Source: a virus
UHGV virus genome: UHGV-0134521
Length of the DNA: 37,102 bases
Strand: one strand, 5' to 3'
Shown: positions 2,854-34,197 of the stretch, piece by piece
Layout: the number at the start of each line of letters is the position of its first letter
Position numbering within the stretch: the first letter of the stretch is position 1
Notes under the pieces: model-generated
Told to the model about the DNA's origin: nothing
Databases searched by the model: none
The model's input: the letters and a program-made list of their open reading frames with translations, nothing else
Made by a program: the position numbers and the translations under genes

Positions 2854-3057
2854 ATGACACCTAACATTTCAATTACTCTGAATACACCACATGTCACAAT
2901 CGAACGTTATAGCGAACTGACTGGCCTTTCTATTGATACGATTAACGACATGTTGGCTGATGGCCGACTACCTCGTCATCGTCTTCGTAAAGACAAAAAA
3001 CGTGAAAAGGTAATGATTAACCTGGCTGCTCTGACTGTTGATGCTTTGTCTGCTTAA
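2854..3057 (+). CDS. Apl/Cox-like small DNA-binding protein (excisionase / lytic-switch regulator), 67 aa
   Basis: First gene of the rightward early operon, divergent from repressor; small basic HTH-like protein; ATG with AAGGAA SD. Confidence 0.6.
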
Positions 3058-9295: not shown

Positions 9296-9309
9296 CGCGC
9301 GCTGAGTAA

Positions 9310-9343
9310 ATCCATTGCGCCAGCTAATCCAATGGATTACAAT
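9310..9343 (+). promoter_or_regulatory. Candidate sigma70 promoter (-35 TTGCGC 9315..9320, -10 TACAAT 9338..9343) with 7-bp inverted repeat TCCATTG/CAATGGA (9310..9316, 9331..9337)
   Basis: Hexamers with 17-bp spacing read from sequence; inverted repeat brackets the spacer; about 25 bp upstream of cassette gene 1. Confidence 0.35.
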
Positions 9344-9365
9344 GTTATATTTACTGAGGGCATGT

Positions 9366-10022
9366 ATGAAAGAAAAAATGATAAATGAAATGCCATCGGC
9401 CCATATTAAGCAGTTAAGGGCCAAAACTGGTTTAACTCAAGAGGAATTTTGCGAGACTTTCGGTCTTAATCTCAACACCTATCGTCATTGGGAGAGGGGG
9501 GATAGAAAACCAACTGGCTCATCATTAGTTTTGCTAAAACTTATTGAGGAGTCTTTTCACGAAGTGCTATCAATTATGAAAAAAATCAAGGGGGATGGTC
9601 CAATAATGTCAGATGGTAAAACACTTATACTTAAATCACTTGAACAAGATAGATTTTTCACTTTTGAACGTTTTGTAAAAGAAAGTTCTTTTTTTTCTGC
9701 GGATGCCATTTGTGCTCTTATTAAAGCTAATGGTTTTCCTTATGTTTATTTTTCAAATAACCAAGGGGAACTTGTATTTTCAGCAGGTTATGAAATTGAA
9801 GATATGAAAGAAGTGTTCTGGGTCAAGAATGATGATAGAACATATGGTGGATCTCTCAAAACTGTCGTTGAAAAAACTTATAGTTCAATCTATGCGATAG
9901 AAGTTGACCTGCAAGATGCTGTTTATTGGACTCCGGAAATGAGAAACTCAAGAATAGTCGATATTACCGAGAAAACAGGAATTGAACGTGACTTTTTTAA
10001 CAATATTTTAAGGAATTGGTAG
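9366..10022 (+). CDS. Cassette gene 1: XRE-family HTH domain (HigA/MqsA-antitoxin-like) fused to a ~160-aa C-terminal domain of unknown function
   Basis: N-terminal KQLRAKTGLTQEEFCETFGLNLNTYRHWERGDRKPTGSSLVLLKLIEE is a typical XRE HTH; ATG 9366 after GAGGG; AT-rich. Confidence 0.65.
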   Translation: MKEKMINEMPSAHIKQLRAKTGLTQEEFCETFGLNLNTYRHWERGDRKPTGSSLVLLKLIEESFHEVLSIMKKIKGDGPIMSDGKTLILKSLEQDRFFTFERFVKESSFFSADAICALIKANGFPYVYFSNNQGELVFSAGYEIEDMKEVFWVKNDDRTYGGSLKTVVEKTYSSIYAIEVDLQDAVYWTPEMRNSRIVDITEKTGIERDFFNNILRNW

Positions 10023-10023
10023 T

Positions 10024-10695
10024 ATGCGTGGTAAACTAATCAGCTTTGAAGGTATTGATGGTAGTGGGAAAGGAACTCAATCGAAGCTGCTTTTCGAAAA
10101 ACTAAATGCAATAGGGGAAACGGCAAAGCTATTTAGTTTTCCTTGTTACGAGAATACTTTTTTTGGAAAAGAAATAGGTGCATTTTTGAGAGGTGAATTT
10201 GGCGGGATTAATGATGTACATCCTAAACTCGCTTCAATTTTATACGCAATGGATCGTTTTGAGAAAAGGCAAGAAATTGTAAGTTCCTTAGATCAAGGAA
10301 TTGTAGTAATTTGTGACCGTTATGTCGATTCTAATATCGCGCATCAATCGTCTAAACTTGCAGTTTCTCAGCAGAAGGAATTTATTGATTGGGTTAGTGC
10401 ATTAGAATATGAATTTAATAAAATGCCTGTGCCTGATTTAACATTTTTCCTGAATGTTCCTTTGGATATTTCAAAGGAAATGGTACTGAAGAAGAAAAAA
10501 AGAAGCTACACTGACTCCGAAGAAGATATACATGAAAGAGCATATGATTATTTAGAAAGAGTATTGTTAGCATACAATAAAATTGATTTCGGCACGCGCT
10601 GGAACTTAATTGAGTGCTGTAATAATAATAATCTGATGGATCCTGAGTCAATAAGTGATTTAATATTTAAAATTGTCATGAAAGGGCTTAGATAA
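10024..10695 (+). CDS. Cassette gene 2: thymidylate-kinase-fold P-loop NMP kinase-like protein, 223 aa
   Basis: FEGIDGSGKGTQ P-loop-like segment, CDRYVDSNIAHQS (Tmk DRY motif) and PDLTFFLNVPLDIS (Tmk PDLT motif); start 1 nt after gene 1 stop. Confidence 0.7.
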   Translation: MRGKLISFEGIDGSGKGTQSKLLFEKLNAIGETAKLFSFPCYENTFFGKEIGAFLRGEFGGINDVHPKLASILYAMDRFEKRQEIVSSLDQGIVVICDRYVDSNIAHQSSKLAVSQQKEFIDWVSALEYEFNKMPVPDLTFFLNVPLDISKEMVLKKKKRSYTDSEEDIHERAYDYLERVLLAYNKIDFGTRWNLIECCNNNNLMDPESISDLIFKIVMKGLR

Positions 10696-11615
10696 TGCAC
10701 GAGTTGTTGAGAAAAAAACACTCTAGGAATAGTTTCATTACTCTATTTGTTATAGTTGTAACATTAATACTGCTTCTTCGGTATGCTGTACTTCCTTATT
10801 TTTACCCTCCACAATCAACTGATTTTGGGGGCTTTATTGCGACATTATTAAATGGGCTATTTTCATCCTTAACAGTAACCTTCTTGATCGGTTTATTTAT
10901 GTTTTGGATTCAGCCGAAACCTGAAAATTATGCTAAAATAGAAATTGCATATCCTAAAGAATTACCAGAACTTTTCAATGTTGCGTTCCTTAAAACGGAA
11001 ATTTGGTATTATAAAGGTGGATGTGGAAGATATTTTAGAACAGCTACGTTACCAAATATGGCGAAACAGGCTAGATCAAAGTCACAGTCAAAAGAAATTT
11101 TGGTTGTTATCCTTGATCCAACTAATATTGATTTATGTGAAAAACACGCTATTTACAGAAGTGGTACAGCATCACAAGAAATTGAAATTAGGCCTTGGAC
11201 AACAGAGGAAGTTCGCGCTGAGTTGTTTGCAACGATTATTACAACGCTAATTACTCAAGCCAAAGAACCTTCATTAAGAATAAAATTATCATTATGCCCT
11301 CACTATTCATCTTTTAGGATAGATTTATCAGATGATTACGCTATTATTACAAAGGAAGATCGCAATTCTCCGGCCATTATATGTCATAAGGGGACTCATT
11401 TTTATAAATCTTATAAAGATGAAGTAATTTTGTCTCTAAACCAATCACGTAGTGTTCGTATGATAGATCAAGTTGATTTTACTCTAAGAGATATTGATGG
11501 CACGAAAGTTAAATCTTTGTTATCTGATGCTGGTTTAGATGATAACAATCTCACGCCGACTTTCTATGACAAGGTCGCGTCGTTATGTAAAGAGGCGAAA
11601 AATCCATATGCATGA
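10695..11615 (+). CDS. Cassette gene 3: membrane protein with two N-terminal transmembrane helices and a ~230-aa soluble domain, 306 aa
   Basis: Two hydrophobic stretches near the N-terminus (FITLFVIVVTLILLL; LFSSLTVTFLIGLFMFWI); start overlaps gene 2 stop (TAATG). Confidence 0.6.
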   Translation: MHELLRKKHSRNSFITLFVIVVTLILLLRYAVLPYFYPPQSTDFGGFIATLLNGLFSSLTVTFLIGLFMFWIQPKPENYAKIEIAYPKELPELFNVAFLKTEIWYYKGGCGRYFRTATLPNMAKQARSKSQSKEILVVILDPTNIDLCEKHAIYRSGTASQEIEIRPWTTEEVRAELFATIITTLITQAKEPSLRIKLSLCPHYSSFRIDLSDDYAIITKEDRNSPAIICHKGTHFYKSYKDEVILSLNQSRSVRMIDQVDFTLRDIDGTKVKSLLSDAGLDDNNLTPTFYDKVASLCKEAKNPYA

Positions 11616-12246
11616 TTATATGAATGAAATCTATCAAAAAATAACTAATAAAGAATCGTTCGATGTTAAACGTTTCTTTACTTGCTTGGTTGATAATTTT
11701 GATAATTTTGATCCTACTTGGCATGCATTGGGATTTATTCATTGCCGTTTAGCTCAGAATGATCAAGGGACTTTACGCTTACATATTTGGTTCAAAAATG
11801 ATTCACATCCTGCTGAACAGTTAGAAAAAATTCATGATCATAAATTCTCGTTGAATAGCTATGTGTTGTACGGTGCAATATGTAACGAGGTTTTTGAACT
11901 TATAGAAACGTCATCTGGAAAATATGATTACCAGGCCTATGCAGTTAAATATCTTGATAAAGGTTCAGAGTTAATCCCTTTAGCCACTTATTATAATGTT
12001 AGTGATGTATCTTCAAGTATAATAAGGGCTGGTTGTTATTATACGGTTGACTCCAGAGAGTTTCACCGATCATCACTTGTAAATAGTGAGATGGCGATAT
12101 CACTAGTGGCGACTTTTGAGCATAAAAATAAAGACCCTTTGACTTTGGTATCTCATGGGGGGAGTGAGTTTAAAATAAGAGATAAGGTTCCATTTGATAA
12201 GAACAAATGGGTGGAGATATTAAAAGAATACATATCAAAATTATGA
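11608..12246 (+). CDS. Cassette gene 4: hypothetical soluble protein, ~212 aa
   Basis: In-frame ATG at 11608 overlapping gene 3 stop by 8 nt; His-rich segments; no family recognised. Confidence 0.55.
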   Translation: MHDYMNEIYQKITNKESFDVKRFFTCLVDNFDNFDPTWHALGFIHCRLAQNDQGTLRLHIWFKNDSHPAEQLEKIHDHKFSLNSYVLYGAICNEVFELIETSSGKYDYQAYAVKYLDKGSELIPLATYYNVSDVSSSIIRAGCYYTVDSREFHRSSLVNSEMAISLVATFEHKNKDPLTLVSHGGSEFKIRDKVPFDKNKWVEILKEYISKL

Positions 12247-12253
12247 TGTTAGC

Positions 12254-12277
12254 TGCCAGATAGGATTTATCTGGCAG
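12254..12277. terminator. Hairpin (CTGCCAGATA / TATCTGGCAG) between convergent cassette gene 4 and portal gene
   Basis: Perfect 10-bp stem, short loop, followed by TGGGTTT on the + strand. Confidence 0.5.
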
Positions 12278-12282
12278 TGGGT

Positions 12283-13311
12283 TTAATTTAACTCGTATTG
12301 CCTAAAGCGAATAATTTCATCCCCAGCCCATGGATTTAATGCGAGAAATTTCTTCTGTAACGGAAGTAGTTCATTTTTGACGAAAACATTCGCAGCCTTC
12401 TCCACGTCCCCAAACCCCCCAACATTATTCGGCATAATCCCCATCATCTGTGGCGGAACACGATGCGCGGCCATCATGTCATCACGACTCACGTTCTTGA
12501 TGTTCAGAAATTCATCTTTCGCTGCAACTTCTGACAACGGGATGATCTGAAGCCCGTCCTTTTTGCCGTTAGGCGAGTACATAAACAGGTTACGGAAGTT
12601 ACCCGGACCTTTGGCACTTTTCATCGCGTTGCGGAGGTTGTTTACGTCCTCCTGGTTCTGCGCGGCATCGGTCATGTACATGATGAAGCCAGCATGACTG
12701 CCGTTAATGTAATACTTCCGGCGGAACAGCGTGGCGGACTCGTTGAGCAGGGCTGACGGAATGGCAGAAAGATAACCGGGCAGGCCGTAGATCTCCTGGT
12801 TGATGTCCGGTTCCATCAGATGAAAGATGCTGCCTTTCGTGAACTGATATGGCTGGGTTGTCATACCGTATTGCACAAACCAGTAGGTATCCAGGTCTAA
12901 CCCGCGTCGTGTGTATTTCGCCAGGGCAGGTTCAAGGGCGATAACTTCACCGAAGCGGTTCGTGCGTTTCTCCAGGTAGGCGTTACCAAATACCAGATAG
13001 TCCTGCACAAAACGTGAAAAAGCCTGCTGGCTGAGCAGCGTGTGAGGGATGTAGGTACTGGTCAGAATGTTGCATTTCACCGCAATTGGTGAACTGTGAT
13101 GCACGGCAGCGCGGAAGGTGCGCGCCAGTCCGTCAAAGCTTACTGGCGGCTCATACCAGCGATCTGTCTGTACGCATTCCACATAGTCCAGCAGTTCGCG
13201 GCGGTCCAGAACAGGAACGGGATCACCGAAGCTGAATGCTTCGGCTGAAGTCTGGCTTTTATGCTGGATCTGGTTCGTCGATGCAGCGCGGTTCTTCTTA
13301 CTCTTGCCCAT
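12283..13311 (-). CDS. Q: Capsid portal protein (P2 gpQ-like)
   Basis: P2 Q-like sequence and position; ATG at 13311 overlaps P stop by 1 nt. Confidence 0.9.
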   Translation of the reverse strand: MGKSKKNRAASTNQIQHKSQTSAEAFSFGDPVPVLDRRELLDYVECVQTDRWYEPPVSFDGLARTFRAAVHHSSPIAVKCNILTSTYIPHTLLSQQAFSRFVQDYLVFGNAYLEKRTNRFGEVIALEPALAKYTRRGLDLDTYWFVQYGMTTQPYQFTKGSIFHLMEPDINQEIYGLPGYLSAIPSALLNESATLFRRKYYINGSHAGFIMYMTDAAQNQEDVNNLRNAMKSAKGPGNFRNLFMYSPNGKKDGLQIIPLSEVAAKDEFLNIKNVSRDDMMAAHRVPPQMMGIMPNNVGGFGDVEKAANVFVKNELLPLQKKFLALNPWAGDEIIRFRQYELN

Positions 13312-15077
13312 CAAAAAATCTCCACAATATTGCTGGTATTGGCGGACTCGCCCTGCAGCGGTTCGTTAAACAGTGCGTGCATTGTTGCCCAGGCCAGATC
13401 CGCATGGCTGGCTTCTTCGCTGCGGCTGGCTTCATAGGTCGGGCGGTTGCCGCTGGCGGTGGTGGCGCGACGGATTGCCATAAATGACTGCGCTATGTCG
13501 GTGTGTCCGGCGTCAAACTCCAGACGGCGGTGACTGATAATGTCGTAGGCCTTGAGTACCAGGGCGTTTTTAACGTTGGGGTTGTAGACAAACTCCCGGA
13601 CGGCAGGAAAGAACGCTTTCACGTTCTCGTAAACCCCGTGGCCGACACCTGTCGAGTCGATGCCGATATAGGTCACGTTGTACTGCTCGGTCAGTTTTTT
13701 GATGGCGTCTGCCTGGGCGCGGAAGTCCATCCCGCGCCACTGGTGACGCTCAAGAATGCGGAACTTACCACCAGGCACGGCTGGCGGCGCCACCACCACG
13801 CATCCGGCGCTGTCGCCGTTTTGCGTACCTTTTGCCGGGTCATAACCGATCCACACTTCGCGCCAGCCAAACGGGCGCAGAGCCAGTGCATGAAAGTCGG
13901 TCCAGACTTCCCAGCTGTCCACCATGCACGCCTGCAGCTCGCTGAGCGGGAACACGGACGCGAGATCGTCCACAAACTCGCACATCAGCAGGTTCTGGTA
14001 TTCGTCCGGGCTGTACTCCATGCGCAACTGGTCAAGGTCGAACAGGTTACAGCCGCCGCGCACCGCATCTTCCACGGTGACTATCTGGCGGTATTGCCCG
14101 TCAGCGCACAGCAGGCCGGGGGCCAGATTGCTGTGGGACAGGTCGATGTCCACCTTATCGGCTTTGTTGCGCCCACGGTTGAATAGCGCACCGGACCAGA
14201 ACGGATAAGCACTGTGTGTCAGGCTGGATGGCGTGGAAAAATAGGTTTGTCGCCATTTCTTGTGAATAGCCATACCGGAAGCCACTTTGCGCAGCTCCTG
14301 GAATTTCGGTATCCAGAAATATTCATCCAGATACAGGTTGCCGTGATAACTCTGGGCAGTGCGGGCATTGGTGCCGAGGAAGTAAAGCGTGGCCCCGTTA
14401 GGAAGCACCATCGGATCGCCTTTCAACTCCACCTCCACTTCTTTGGCGAAGTCGATGATGTACTGCTTAAAGACGTTGGCCTGTGCCTTGCTGGCGGAAA
14501 GGAAAATCTGGTTACGTCCGGCCAGCAGGGCGTCAATCAGGGCTTCACGGGCAAAGTAAAATGTCGCGCCGATCTGGCGTGACTTCAGCAGGTTGCGGAT
14601 GCGGTTGGTTTTTCCGGCTTCCCACCAGTGGCGCTGGTAGTTGAACATGGAGGAATGGAAGATTTCTTCCAGCTTCTCAATCTGCTCATCGGTGAAATCA
14701 TTCTTTTCCGGCTGACGGCGTGGGCCTTTGTTGCGGTTGGCGACGTTAGGGTTTAAGTCGGATTCGTTGCCGCCATTGTTAAACTTGCCGATCCGCGCGT
14801 GGCGCTCAGACTGGCGCGCCAGCAGGTCAATCTCTTTGAAATCTTTCCCTTCTTTGTGCTCCTTCATGATGAGCTGGCAGTAGCGTGCGGCGGTGGTGAG
14901 CTGCATCTGATCCAGCGGCCCATAGTCACCCCACTTGTCGCGTTTTTTCCAGCTGTGAACGGTTGCAACTTTCTCGCCCAGCATTTCAGCAATGCGGGCT
15001 ACGCGGTATCCCTGAAAGTACAGCAGCATGGCCTGCCGACGGGGATCGAGATCTGTGGGTGTCAGTGTGGTGTTCAT
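13311..15077 (-). CDS. P: Terminase large (ATPase) subunit (P2 gpP-like), 588 aa
   Basis: Size, position divergent from O, P2 P-like sequence. Confidence 0.9.
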   Translation of the reverse strand: MNTTLTPTDLDPRRQAMLLYFQGYRVARIAEMLGEKVATVHSWKKRDKWGDYGPLDQMQLTTAARYCQLIMKEHKEGKDFKEIDLLARQSERHARIGKFNNGGNESDLNPNVANRNKGPRRQPEKNDFTDEQIEKLEEIFHSSMFNYQRHWWEAGKTNRIRNLLKSRQIGATFYFAREALIDALLAGRNQIFLSASKAQANVFKQYIIDFAKEVEVELKGDPMVLPNGATLYFLGTNARTAQSYHGNLYLDEYFWIPKFQELRKVASGMAIHKKWRQTYFSTPSSLTHSAYPFWSGALFNRGRNKADKVDIDLSHSNLAPGLLCADGQYRQIVTVEDAVRGGCNLFDLDQLRMEYSPDEYQNLLMCEFVDDLASVFPLSELQACMVDSWEVWTDFHALALRPFGWREVWIGYDPAKGTQNGDSAGCVVVAPPAVPGGKFRILERHQWRGMDFRAQADAIKKLTEQYNVTYIGIDSTGVGHGVYENVKAFFPAVREFVYNPNVKNALVLKAYDIISHRRLEFDAGHTDIAQSFMAIRRATTASGNRPTYEASRSEEASHADLAWATMHALFNEPLQGESANTSNIVEIF

Positions 15078-15123
15078 GGCACAAACCTACAGCCTTGAAT
15101 GAAGGCTTTCCCCGCCTGCGGTT

Positions 15124-15141
15124 TGTGTGGTTGTCGGTACA
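15124..15141. promoter_or_regulatory. TGT-N12-ACA dyad between divergent P and O genes (candidate Ogr/B late-activator site)
   Basis: TGTGTGGTTGTCGGTACA read from sequence; P2 late promoters are known to carry TGT-N12-ACA. Confidence 0.5.
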
Positions 15142-15219
15142 AATACCGCGCATTGTTTCACTGCCCCCATCACCGCAACCATAAGGCTCCAGTAAGTTTT
15201 TTCTAACGGAGCACGGCTC

Positions 15220-20194: not shown

Positions 20195-20588
20195 AGCAGT
20201 GCCTTATGTCCGTAATAACCCGGACAAACTGCATCTGTTTGTGGATAACGGTTCGCTGGTTGCCACCGGGGCCAGCTCCATGTCATGGGAGTACCGCTAC
20301 ACCCTGAACGTGGTGATTGAAGATTTCAGCGGCGACCAGAATCTGCTGATGGCCCCGGTTTTGCTGTGGCTGCGGGATAACCAGTCTGATGCCATCAATA
20401 ACCCGGCGTTACGGGAAAAGCTATTCACCTTTGAGGTGGATATTCTGCGCAACGATGTCTGTGATATCAGCCTGAACCTGCAGCTGACGGAGCGTGTGCT
20501 GGTCAGCACTGACGGAAGTGTGTCGAGCGTTGAAGCGATAACGGAACCCGATGAACCTGAAGAAATGTGGACGGTGAAACGTGGCTGA
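20157..20588 (+). CDS. R: Tail completion protein (gpR-like)
   Basis: P2 R-like sequence from GTG 20157 after AGGAG; the track ORF begins at an upstream TTG. Confidence 0.75.
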   Translation: MNKPQSLRHALNKAVPYVRNNPDKLHLFVDNGSLVATGASSMSWEYRYTLNVVIEDFSGDQNLLMAPVLLWLRDNQSDAINNPALREKLFTFEVDILRNDVCDISLNLQLTERVLVSTDGSVSSVEAITEPDEPEEMWTVKRG

Positions 20589-21030
20589 ACTGCAGAAAGT
20601 AGACGACTGGCTGAGTGCCTTGCTGGCGAATCTGGAGCCAGTCGCAAGAAGCCGCATGATGCGTCAGCTGGCGCAGGAACTGCGCCGGACACAGCAACAG
20701 AACATCAGGATGCAGCGCAATCCAGATGGCAGCAGTTATGAGCCGCGCAGAGTAACAGCACGCAGCAAAAAGGGGCGCATCAAACGTCAGATGTTTACAA
20801 AGCTGCGCACCACAAAATACCTGAAAACTGCCGCCAGCGCCGACTCTGCCAGCGTGCAGTTTGAAGGCAAGGTACAGCGCATTGCCCGTGTTCACCATTA
20901 CGGCCTGCGCGATCGCTTTAGCCGTAACGGCCCAGAAGTGCGCTATGCGGTGAGGAAGTTGTTGGGTATCAACGAAGAAGTGGAAACTTTAACTCAAGAC
21001 ATATTATTAATGTGGATATCCAGGAAGTAA
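20581..21030 (+). CDS. S: Tail completion protein (gpS-like)
   Basis: P2 S-like sequence; GTG start overlapping R stop. Confidence 0.8.
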   Translation: MAELQKVDDWLSALLANLEPVARSRMMRQLAQELRRTQQQNIRMQRNPDGSSYEPRRVTARSKKGRIKRQMFTKLRTTKYLKTAASADSASVQFEGKVQRIARVHHYGLRDRFSRNGPEVRYAVRKLLGINEEVETLTQDILLMWISRK

Positions 21031-21142: not shown

Positions 21143-21943
21143 ATGTCTGAAAAGTTAATTTTTTTATCCCATATAACAGAAGAAAAAGAATTAGCGAAAA
21201 TAATCAAAGATGCAATTGAAGACGAGTTTTCTGGATTCGTTGAAGTGTTTGTATCGTCAGATGGGAATACAATTAAAGCCGGTCAAAATTTCTTAAATGT
21301 TATTGAAAATGGGTTAGTAAATTGTATTGCTGCTATTTATCTGATAAGCCCAGAATCTGTCCAGAGAAGCTGGATTAGTTTTGAGTTAGGGGCTGTATGG
21401 GTTAGAAATGCTATCAGCCGGCAAAACGGCGGGCCAGAAATCCCTGCTATTCCTTTTTGCCACTCGGATATGACGTTTAGAGACTTGCCCCAACCTATCT
21501 GTAATCTAAATGGTATTGAAGCAAACCGATCTCATTCCTTGGAGTTTGCATTTAAGTCGATTCAGACCGCTGTTGGAGGAAAAGGACGATTGAGAACTGA
21601 TTTTGATGTTCTTGCCGAGAAAGTTAACATTTTTGAGAGAGATTATACAGTCTTCAAAAGTATAGGCGAAATTCTCGGTTTAATTGGTGTAGATAGCCAG
21701 CGTCGCGCACAATTAGTTCAGCTTGTTAATAGTTCAGCAGAGAATGAAGTTATAATTAAAACTGATACTAGGCAGGATTCAGCAGATATAATATTTAAAT
21801 TAGTTGATACTAAGTTAAGTCATTTCGCTAAATATAAAGTAACATCTTCTGGTTTAGGTATGGGACTTCAAGGCGCTTCTCCTTTCTGTGAATTTGAATT
21901 GAGAATGGATCGGAAAATACTCAGTGATTACTTGGCTCGATAG
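21143..21943 (+). CDS. TIR-like domain protein (N-terminal ~130 aa) with C-terminal domain of unknown function, 266 aa; moron between S and V
   Basis: LIFLSH...VEVFVSSDG...IAAIYLISPESVQRSWISFELGAVW follows TIR strand-helix topology including the S-x-W-x-x-E-L element; GGAGG SD; AT-rich. Confidence 0.55.
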   Translation: MSEKLIFLSHITEEKELAKIIKDAIEDEFSGFVEVFVSSDGNTIKAGQNFLNVIENGLVNCIAAIYLISPESVQRSWISFELGAVWVRNAISRQNGGPEIPAIPFCHSDMTFRDLPQPICNLNGIEANRSHSLEFAFKSIQTAVGGKGRLRTDFDVLAEKVNIFERDYTVFKSIGEILGLIGVDSQRRAQLVQLVNSSAENEVIIKTDTRQDSADIIFKLVDTKLSHFAKYKVTSSGLGMGLQGASPFCEFELRMDRKILSDYLAR

Positions 21944-21955
21944 TTTCTATTACCT

Positions 21956-21973
21956 TGTGTGAGGTGCCACACA
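21956..21973. promoter_or_regulatory. TGT-N12-ACA dyad (TGTGTGAGGTGCCACACA, extended palindrome TTGTGTG-N6-CACACAA) upstream of V
   Basis: Read directly from sequence; matches the P2 late-promoter activator motif. Confidence 0.5.
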
Positions 21974-21990
21974 ATTCCCTATATTACTAA

Positions 21991-22017
21991 AGCCTGCCAA
22001 TTTCTGGCAGGCTTTTT
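21991..22017 (+). terminator. Hairpin AGCCTGCC-(7 nt)-GGCAGGCT followed by TTTTT, ending 2 nt before V start
   Basis: 8-bp perfect stem plus T-run read from sequence. Confidence 0.5.
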
Positions 22018-22019
22018 CT

Positions 22020-22598
22020 ATGAACGCACAATTAACCGAAATCATGCGCCTTATCACCAACCTGATCCGCACTGGGGTAGTCACCGAAGTGGACAGGGAA
22101 AACTGGCTTTGCCGGGTGAAAACGGGCGAGCTTGAAACCAACTGGATCAGCTGGCTGACGCTGCGTGCCGGGAATGCCCGCACATGGTGGCGACCATCGG
22201 AAGGTGAGCAGGTGGTGCTGCTGAGTCTGGGCGGAAATCTGGAAACCGCCTTTGCGTTGCCCGCTGTCTATTCGAATCAGTTCGCGCCACCGTCGACGTC
22301 GGCAGACGCCTGCGTGACAGAACATCCTGACGGCGGCTGGTTTGAATACGAGCCCACCACCGGGCGCTGGTATGTCAGAGGCATCAAATCCATGGTCATT
22401 GAGGCTGCCGACAACATCACCCTGAAAACCTGTGAGTTTGTGCTGGAGGCTGACCGCACGCGTATTAACAGCGAAGTGGTGATCAATGGTGGCGTTACCC
22501 AGGGCGGCGGTGCGATGAGTTCTAACGAGATTGTGGTTGATGCGCATCAGCATACTGGCGTCCTGAAAGGCGGCGATACAACCGGAGGCCCGGTATGA
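22020..22598 (+). CDS. V: Baseplate spike protein (gpV-like)
   Basis: P2 V-like sequence. Confidence 0.9.
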   Translation: MNAQLTEIMRLITNLIRTGVVTEVDRENWLCRVKTGELETNWISWLTLRAGNARTWWRPSEGEQVVLLSLGGNLETAFALPAVYSNQFAPPSTSADACVTEHPDGGWFEYEPTTGRWYVRGIKSMVIEAADNITLKTCEFVLEADRTRINSEVVINGGVTQGGGAMSSNEIVVDAHQHTGVLKGGDTTGGPV

Positions 22599-26956: not shown

Positions 26957-26974
26957 TGTGTGAATAACGGTACA
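26957..26974. promoter_or_regulatory. TGT-N12-ACA dyad (TGTGTGAATAACGGTACA) upstream of tail sheath gene FI
   Basis: Read from sequence; about 85 bp before FI ATG. Confidence 0.5.
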
Positions 26975-27050
26975 ACTGCGCTTAGCTGCTTGTCAGACAC
27001 AATCACTTCAACATAGGGCGAAGCCTAATCCAATCAGGAGGTTCGCCACT

Positions 27051-33888: not shown

Positions 33889-33978
33889 TTCTTCGCAATG
33901 GAGAACTTTTAAGTTTGCAAAATGGAATAATGCGGTATCATTATTGTGAATTTAGCAAAAATGGGGAGAACTCGAAAA

Positions 33979-34197
33979 ATGATGATTTGCCCACTGTGTG
34001 GAAGTGCCGCCCATACTCGCAGCAGTTTTCAGGTATCTTCATTGACCAAAGAGCGTTACAACCAGTGCCAGAATATTAACTGCAGCCATACTTTTGTTAC
34101 CCATGAAACTTTTGTTCGTTCGATTGCAACGCCAAAAGAGTCAAATCCGGTTCAGCCGCATCCAATGAAATCAGGACAGGTGGCGCTCTCTCTTTGA
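33979..34197 (+). CDS. ogr: Late-gene transcription activator, Ogr/Delta/B family zinc finger
   Basis: CPLCGSAAH...YNQCQNINCSHTF matches Ogr C2C2 motif; last phage gene before attR; GGGGAG SD. Confidence 0.85.
   Translation: MMICPLCGSAAHTRSSFQVSSLTKERYNQCQNINCSHTFVTHETFVRSIATPKESNPVQPHPMKSGQVALSL

Follow-up and report, generated by a model that had tools for sequence, protein, structure and literature searches.

How can the activator site of a late promoter, a strong hairpin and the start codon of a tail gene be accommodated within 67 bp, and to which transcript does the hairpin belong? This question is raised by positions 21956 to 22022 of a viral genome of 37,102 nucleotides (UHGV-0134521), the whole of which is referred to as the window. 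An earlier note on this DNA offered two alternatives: either the late promoters give near-leaderless transcripts, or the hairpin terminates the transcript of an upstream moron while forming the 5' end of the message of gene V.

The window represents an E. coli prophage of the P2-like type (Peduoviridae), and the arrangement in question is the late promoter (PV) of its baseplate (V) operon, a compact version of largely known biology. The genes of interest are the following.

20581-21030: tail gene S (Pfam Phage_tail_S)
21143..21943, plus strand: TIR-domain moron of 266 aa, located between S and V (Pfam TIR_2, 1.5e-7)
22020..22598, plus strand: gene V, baseplate spike (Pfam Phage_base_V and Apex), with transcription predicted to start at its first base (22020)
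13311-15077, minus strand: ORF of P, the terminase large subunit
15220 onwards: ORF of the scaffold protein O
27051 onwards: ORF of the sheath protein FI
33946..34197, plus strand: gene of a zinc-finger late activator of the Ogr/Delta family (Pfam Ogr_Delta, 6.7e-22)

A cognate activator is encoded by the phage itself, namely the Ogr_Delta protein at 33946-34197; the true start of this ORF is probably an ATG internal to the frame as listed. PGAP calls the same start for V (22020) in an identical E. coli prophage and the same start for P (15077). Among 5426 complete E. coli genomes, 20 carry the 181 bp around the site in identical or 99.4% identical form, always beside the same TIR gene; D3 and GN02461 are examples of E. 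coli strains that harbour this prophage.

Four elements follow one another, or overlap, between the moron and the first codon of V.

21956..21973, no strand assigned: PV activator (Ogr-family) dyad TGTGTGAGGTGCCACACA, TGTGTG-N6-CACACA, with its centre 55.5 nt before +1
21989..22015, plus strand: hairpin AAAGCCTGCCA/ATTTC/TGGCAGGCTTT, with an 11-bp stem and a 5-nt loop, a predicted intrinsic terminator
22005..22013, plus strand: PV -10 region, TGg followed by CAGGCT, at -15 to -7, on the 3' arm of the hairpin
22013..22019, plus strand: T-tract TTTTTCT, serving as the terminator U-tract and the PV discriminator (T-run 22013-22017, then CT, then the V ATG at 22020)

The dyad TGTGTGAGGTGCCACACA, which the earlier note had described as a perfect TGT-N12-ACA palindrome, is indeed perfect with respect to that pattern and is a late-promoter activator site of the P2 type. 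It consists of 6-bp perfect inverted arms (TGTGTG/CACACA) around six central nucleotides that are not palindromic, and it is the predicted Ogr-type activator site of the V-operon late promoter. The pattern itself is no more frequent in the window than expected by chance (nine matches versus 9.8 expected); thus, the significance of the PV dyad derives from its position and conservation rather than from the motif count. Three of the nine copies are intergenic and precede late operons, at 15124 (P/O), 21956 (V) and 26957 (F). Another copy (15066-15083), which shares bases with the P start codon and is missing from one relative (L246), was taken as a chance match.

The centre of the PV dyad (21964.5) precedes the A of the V start codon (22020) by 55.5 nt. 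Counted from that A as +1, the -10 hexamer CAGGCT occupies -12 to -7 and is preceded by TG at -15 and -14, while the sequence at -35 to -30, TACTAA, matches TTGACA at only two of six positions. The promoter core therefore combines a weak -10 with no recognisable -35, and a sigma-70 promoter scan of the window did not flag PV. There is no usable Shine-Dalgarno (SD) sequence before V, as the earlier note had remarked: the sole AGG (22009-22011) lies inside the hairpin stem, and relatives have AAC at this place.

The closest known counterpart is the V promoter of phage P2. The four Ogr-dependent late promoters of P2 share the consensus TGT-N12-ACA (PMC3931495). In the P2 record (NC_001895), the PV activator site is annotated at 10239-10266 (centre 10252.5) and the transcription start site of the V operon at 10308, where the V coding sequence itself begins; P2 gene V is thus annotated as a leaderless message. 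The comparison with P2 late-promoter architecture that the earlier note had recommended hence gives the same spacing of 55.5 nt, from site centre to transcription start in P2 and from dyad centre to V ATG in the window. The two promoters are also alike in their genomic place (from S, or a moron, to V), in lacking both an SD and a -35, and in their dependence, predicted for the window, on a phage-encoded activator of the Ogr family; promoters of this class require both the activator and the alpha subunit of RNA polymerase. They differ in three respects. The dyad is perfect in the window and imperfect in P2 PV (TGT-N11-ACA or TGT-N12-CTA); the neighbouring moron is co-directional with V in the window, whereas that of P2 (orf30) is on the reverse strand; and the terminator of the P2 O operon directly follows S, outside the promoter, while the one predicted for the window lies inside PV at -31 to -3.

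Judging from the homology with P2 and from the spacing, the V transcript of the window most likely lacks a leader and starts with the A of the start codon (22020). As the V-W-J-I-H-G message would then carry no leader, V would not need an SD. Such an arrangement is not new, since it is already documented for P2. Genes of lambda and P2 are among the few leaderless genes in E. coli, for which Christie and Calendar (1985) has been cited (PMC4633059). Like lambda cI (transcribed from PRM) and Tn1721 tetR, V of the window is predicted to begin with a 5'-terminal AUG without an SD and has an ATG start. However, cI and tetR are regulatory genes, whereas V is the first gene of a structural late operon whose promoter is predicted to be activator-dependent.

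The spacing was followed through 160 IMG/VR loci, 80 with a window-like V and 80 with a P2-like V, whose upstream sequences fall into 17 families. Many of these families cannot be aligned with one another from the dyad to the ATG. A dyad upstream of V was found in all related families surveyed, and across the 17 families it lies 54.5-56.5 nt from the V ATG. Families with a V of the window type have a perfect TGT-N12-ACA at 55.5 nt before the ATG, apart from two families at 54.5 and two at 56.5; those with a V of the P2 type mostly have a dyad with one mismatch at 56.5. Every sequence surveyed starts V with ATG, and none has an SD before V or a conserved purine-rich motif at -5 to -12. The hexamers of the window-type families vary (CAACCT, CAGGCT, CATCAT, AACTAT, CATCCT, AATATT, AAGAAT and CAGTCT), with an A at -11 and a T at -7 kept in all of them, and the P2-type hexamers (CATCCT, CAATCT) are shifted one base further upstream together with the dyad. 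Since the dyad and the -10 are pinned to the start codon over spacers that are otherwise unrelated, the simplest constraint would be that the start codon is also the transcription start. The suggestion of near-leaderless transcripts is thereby supported as a prediction: the spacing equals that of P2 PV and is conserved across unrelated upstream sequences.

Between the dyad and the V start codon lies the hairpin. As had been described in the earlier note, an 8-bp stem followed by a T-run ends 2 nt before the V ATG; this GC core (21992-21999 with 22005-22012) is extended by A-U pairs to a stem of 11 bp (21989-21999 with 22005-22015). The predicted fold has an energy of -18.4 kcal/mol (z = -6.7), and none of 200 shuffled sequences was as stable. 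With six G-C pairs among its 11 and the tail UUUUUCU, the structure has the shape of an intrinsic terminator, and it begins 46 nt past the stop codon of the co-directional TIR gene (21943). No terminator-like structure was found between S and the TIR moron, so that the hairpin would be the first strong stop after S and the O operon. Its stem and U-tract are near-identical to the terminator consensus of glmZ in Rfam. A simple promoter/terminator scanner did not flag the hairpin, which we attribute to the rule that it applies: greedy extension of the stem consumes the first three T's and leaves four T's in the 8-nt tail, where five are required.

The only Rfam matches, both sub-threshold, were rejected as RNA genes, since the terminator stem accounts for them. 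One is to GlmZ_SraJ (21803-22020; 22.7 bits versus a gathering score of 60), which does not indicate an sRNA, and the other is to Phe_leader.

Relative to the predicted +1 at 22020, the hairpin occupies -31 to -5 and the T-tract -7 to -3. The hairpin is thus upstream of the predicted start and would not be part of the V message; the proposal that it forms the 5' end of this message is not supported. The same DNA constitutes the 3' arm of the hairpin and the -10 hexamer CAGGCT. A comparison is offered by moron-less relatives, in which S directly adjoins V. Homology to these relatives (S stop, dyad, V) resumes at 22005, within the 3' arm, where the window reads TGGCAGGCTTTTTCT and the relatives read TGGCAACCTTTCCCT. 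There are four differences, of which AC to GG adds pairs with the 5' arm and CC to TT lengthens the T-tract, and -11A and -7T are spared. The -10 hexamer of the relatives, CAACCT, differs from CAGGCT at two positions, and PV of the window could consequently be weakened.

The occurrence of a strong hairpin between the dyad and the ATG is associated with the orientation of the gene upstream. When hairpins of -15 kcal/mol or stronger are counted per family, they are present in five of the six families in which the upstream gene is co-directional and in none of the 11 with a reverse-strand moron, P2 included (Fisher p = 0.001). The co-directional families with a strong hairpin are those in which S itself precedes V (most P2-type loci), three with different plus-strand morons, and the TIR family. 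The exception is formed by the commonest moron-less relatives with a V of the window type, in which S is co-directional and adjacent and the hairpin is weak (-5.7 kcal/mol); the hairpin is therefore not obligatory.

Most P2-type prophages that lack orf30 (loci L089-L158) have a conserved hairpin of their own, with a 9-bp GC stem (TGCCGCCGG/CCGGCGGCA) and an energy of -19.5 kcal/mol. It lies at about -36 to -12 before V, past the PV dyad and short of the -10, and is followed by a poor U-tract (TCCTTCCCGTT); a few compensatory variants of it exist (L158, L130). Covariation is modest, with two pairs changed on both sides, a result equalled by 20 of 500 shuffles, and it was not among the main lines of evidence. 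This hairpin may be a weak terminator or a stabiliser of the 3' end.

The TIR moron between S and V has a GC content of 36-43%, compared with about 55-58% in its flanks. PGAP names its product a TIR domain-containing protein, PADLOC gives weak matches to PDC-S66, SpbK and ThsB, and the moron may be an anti-phage gene, judging from these matches. In E. coli it occurs in the 20 of 5426 genomes mentioned above, only in the S-V context. In strain 4012 the match to it falls into two pieces, with an IS1 family transposase annotated under it. Homologues with 86, 63 and 62% protein identity are found at the same site in other P2-like phages from IMG/VR (L328, L330 and L331). In these diverged relatives the dyad again lies 55.5 nt from the ATG, the stem (GCCTGCC...GTCAGGC) is preserved and seven T's abut the ATG, while the loop and the spacer have diverged; this gives a partial answer to whether the terminator travels with the moron. 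A weak candidate for a promoter of the moron itself, TTGCTA-N18-TATTTT, was recognised by eye, and the scan found nothing; the moron would presumably be expressed in the lysogen.

Taken together, the fold, the likeness to glmZ, the link with gene orientation and the retention in relatives indicate that the hairpin is most likely an intrinsic terminator, for the TIR moron and for read-through from the O operon, which is the part of the second alternative of the earlier note that stands. Termination itself is deduced from these features. With its GC-rich stem, 5-nt loop and U-tract behind a co-directional, AT-rich and dispensable gene, the hairpin is like the rho-independent terminators and moron cassettes of temperate phages, for example the terminator of glmZ and that of the P2 O operon. 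It differs from them in that its 3' arm and U-tract also serve as -10 and discriminator for the promoter that follows, whose activator dyad is situated between the moron stop codon and the terminator.

Gene V is not the only late gene for which such a spacing can be recognised. The elements of the other late promoters are as follows.

15124..15141, no strand assigned: activator dyad shared by PP and PO, TGTGTGGTTGTCGGTACA, centre 15132.5
15077..15089, minus strand: PP -10 TAGGTT (15089-15084) and the predicted start at the P ATG (15077), based on spacing and the -10
26957..27021, plus strand: PF late promoter, with dyad 26957-26974, -10 CAACAT at 27009-27014 and predicted start at about 27021

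On the minus strand, 55.5 nt separate the centre of the P/O dyad (15132.5) and the P ATG (15077), so that the distances of about 55 bp that had been noted for V and P are both exactly 55.5 nt. For O, whose start is predicted at about 15188-15191, the distance from the same dyad is about 56-58 nt. At +43.5 to +48.5 from the dyad centres, the hexamers are CAACAT (PF), CAACCA or AACCAT (PO), CAGGCT (PV) and TAGGTT (PP). A leader of about 30 nt, carrying GGAG or AGGAGG, would precede O and F, and none would precede V and P; the predicted leader of FI (27051) is 30 nt long and contains AGGAGG. In P2, the distance from site to start at PF is about 57-59 nt, and PF of the window is comparable.

The shared dyad of the window resembles the P2 arrangement, in which PP and PO have one site (centre 3071.5) at an equal distance of 55.5 nt from their mapped starts at 3016 and 3127. 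TAGGTT at -12 to -7 is in a position homologous to that of the P2 PP -10, TAGCCT. The start codons differ: P of P2 has a 23-nt leader with a GAGG SD (transcription start 3016, ATG 2993), flanked by a TATTCAT direct repeat, while the P ATG of the window is at the predicted start. Because this ATG is found exactly at the dyad centre + 55.5, P is predicted to be leaderless in the lineage of the window. Close IMG/VR relatives differed too little in the P/O region to be of use, and 79 species-level genome loci from many genera of Enterobacterales (L247-L326) were surveyed in their place. An in-frame P ATG lies at 55.5 nt from the centre of a perfect dyad in 66 of these 79 loci, and each of these 66 shows TAnnnT at -12 to -7, including those in which P has an N-terminus of a different length. 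In a limited literature search, no paper was found that states that P is leaderless in this lineage, and leaderless P is the least documented part of the case.

A palindrome, AGCCTT-GAATG-AAGGCT, is present in the PP spacer (15091-15107, -14 to -30). It resembles the hairpin within the promoter at PV and is poorly conserved in relatives.

A likely reading of the whole is that the site is a complete PV promoter with a nested terminator and a leaderless V. The Ogr-type activator would bind to the dyad at -55.5 and recruit the host RNA polymerase to a promoter that has no -35 and a weak -10 (CAGGCT), and transcription would begin on the A of the V ATG (22020), giving a leaderless V-W-J-I-H-G message. 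Polymerase that has transcribed the TIR gene in the lysogen, or that comes from PO late in infection, would stop in the U-tract, 1-7 nt before the V ATG. In any RNA that reads through, V would be an internal AUG without an SD behind a stable hairpin, and its translation would be poor. Thus, of the two alternatives posed at the outset, leaderless V and the terminator are both retained, and what falls is their mutual exclusivity, as the best reading combines them.

Other explanations of the same elements have to be weighed against a promoter with a nested terminator. The hairpin could belong to the V mRNA, as first proposed. It would then be a stabilising or regulatory 5' structure, and transcription would begin further upstream, for example near 21992 from TATATT (21980-21985), which makes a fair -10 hexamer 7 nt ahead of the stem. 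Such a transcript would at once meet its own canonical terminator and would have V, with no usable SD, behind a hairpin. Furthermore, TATATT has no -35 and no TG extension, the sigma-70 scan finds nothing there, and the hexamer is not conserved in the relatives with a TIR moron, while most relatives have V without a hairpin at the same spacing from dyad to ATG; we consider this explanation very unlikely. Chance resemblance of the dyad to an activator site, with V expressed by read-through from PO or the moron, would agree with the number of TGT-N12-ACA matches in the window, which does not exceed expectation. It is hardly compatible with a position fixed within 1 nt in 17 families and with the activator site annotated at the equivalent place in P2. 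Moreover, read-through would have to pass the strong terminator between the upstream genes and V, and translation from an internal AUG would lack an SD, which makes this explanation extremely unlikely.

The inverted repeat could also act as DNA. An 11-bp perfect repeat with a 5-bp spacer that overlaps a -10 has the classic geometry of an operator, and its stem sequence is conserved in diverged relatives; a dimeric repressor of the phage or the moron, bound over -31 to -5, might keep the tail operon shut. Against an operator stand the T-tract behind the repeat and its match to a known terminator, and the hairpins of other families are unrelated in sequence and track the orientation of the upstream gene, not a candidate regulator. 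The paired changes in the P2-type hairpin (for example CCGG to CTAG) likewise keep the pairing and alter the sequence. P2 late-gene control is not known to need such a repressor, which also counts against an operator, an explanation that we regard as quite improbable. Somewhat less so, though still improbable, is a hairpin without function, left over from an ancestral PV palindrome or as a recombination scar of moron exchange. Such a by-product would be in line with the resumption of homology inside the 3' arm at 22005, with the invariance of GGCA...CTT (-15 to -7) in both V groups, and with the commonest relatives, which carry a weak remnant and are presumably viable. It does not account for the fact that all four differences from TGGCAACCTTTCCCT improve pairing or the T-tract, for a stem that persists in TIR morons of as little as 62% protein identity despite a changed loop and spacer, or for the association with orientation (p = 0.001).

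The promoter with a nested terminator suggests a wider role for the missing leaders. If V and P have no SD and are translated solely from a 5'-terminal AUG, only transcripts initiated at the Ogr-dependent promoters would yield V and P protein. It is conceivable, at a little under an even chance in our estimation, that in a broad P2-like clade of Enterobacterales two of the four late operons (P and V) are leaderless, and that this acts as an insulator which lets a moron and its terminator sit within a promoter without leaky tail-gene expression. If so, a constitutively expressed defence moron could be tolerated a few bases from a start codon without leaky expression of tail genes in the lysogen.

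In this arrangement, one stretch of 67 bp would hold an activator site, a terminator, a -10 and a start codon, with the terminator and the promoter core sharing bases. The comparative result extends beyond the P2 paradigm, in that a fixed 55.5 nt separates the dyad and the start codon over unrelated sequences, for V and, in most relatives among Enterobacterales, for P as well. This would provide an annotation rule by which the start codons of V and P and the late promoters can be placed in P2-like prophages. The S-V junction would be a moron site at which incoming genes carry or retain a terminator embedded in the promoter.

Elsewhere in the window, an AT-rich island (9300-12300, GC 31-37%) with four plus-strand ORFs occupies the position of tin/old in P2. 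The ORF at 10024-10695 has PADLOC matches to PDC-M51B (2e-10) and VakA, and the N-terminus of the ORF at 9315-10022 is HTH or control-protein-like. A further match to TGT-N12-ACA, far from the late region, is formed by the perfect 8+8 palindrome TGTGTACA-TT-TGTACACA (11-28) at the left edge of the window.
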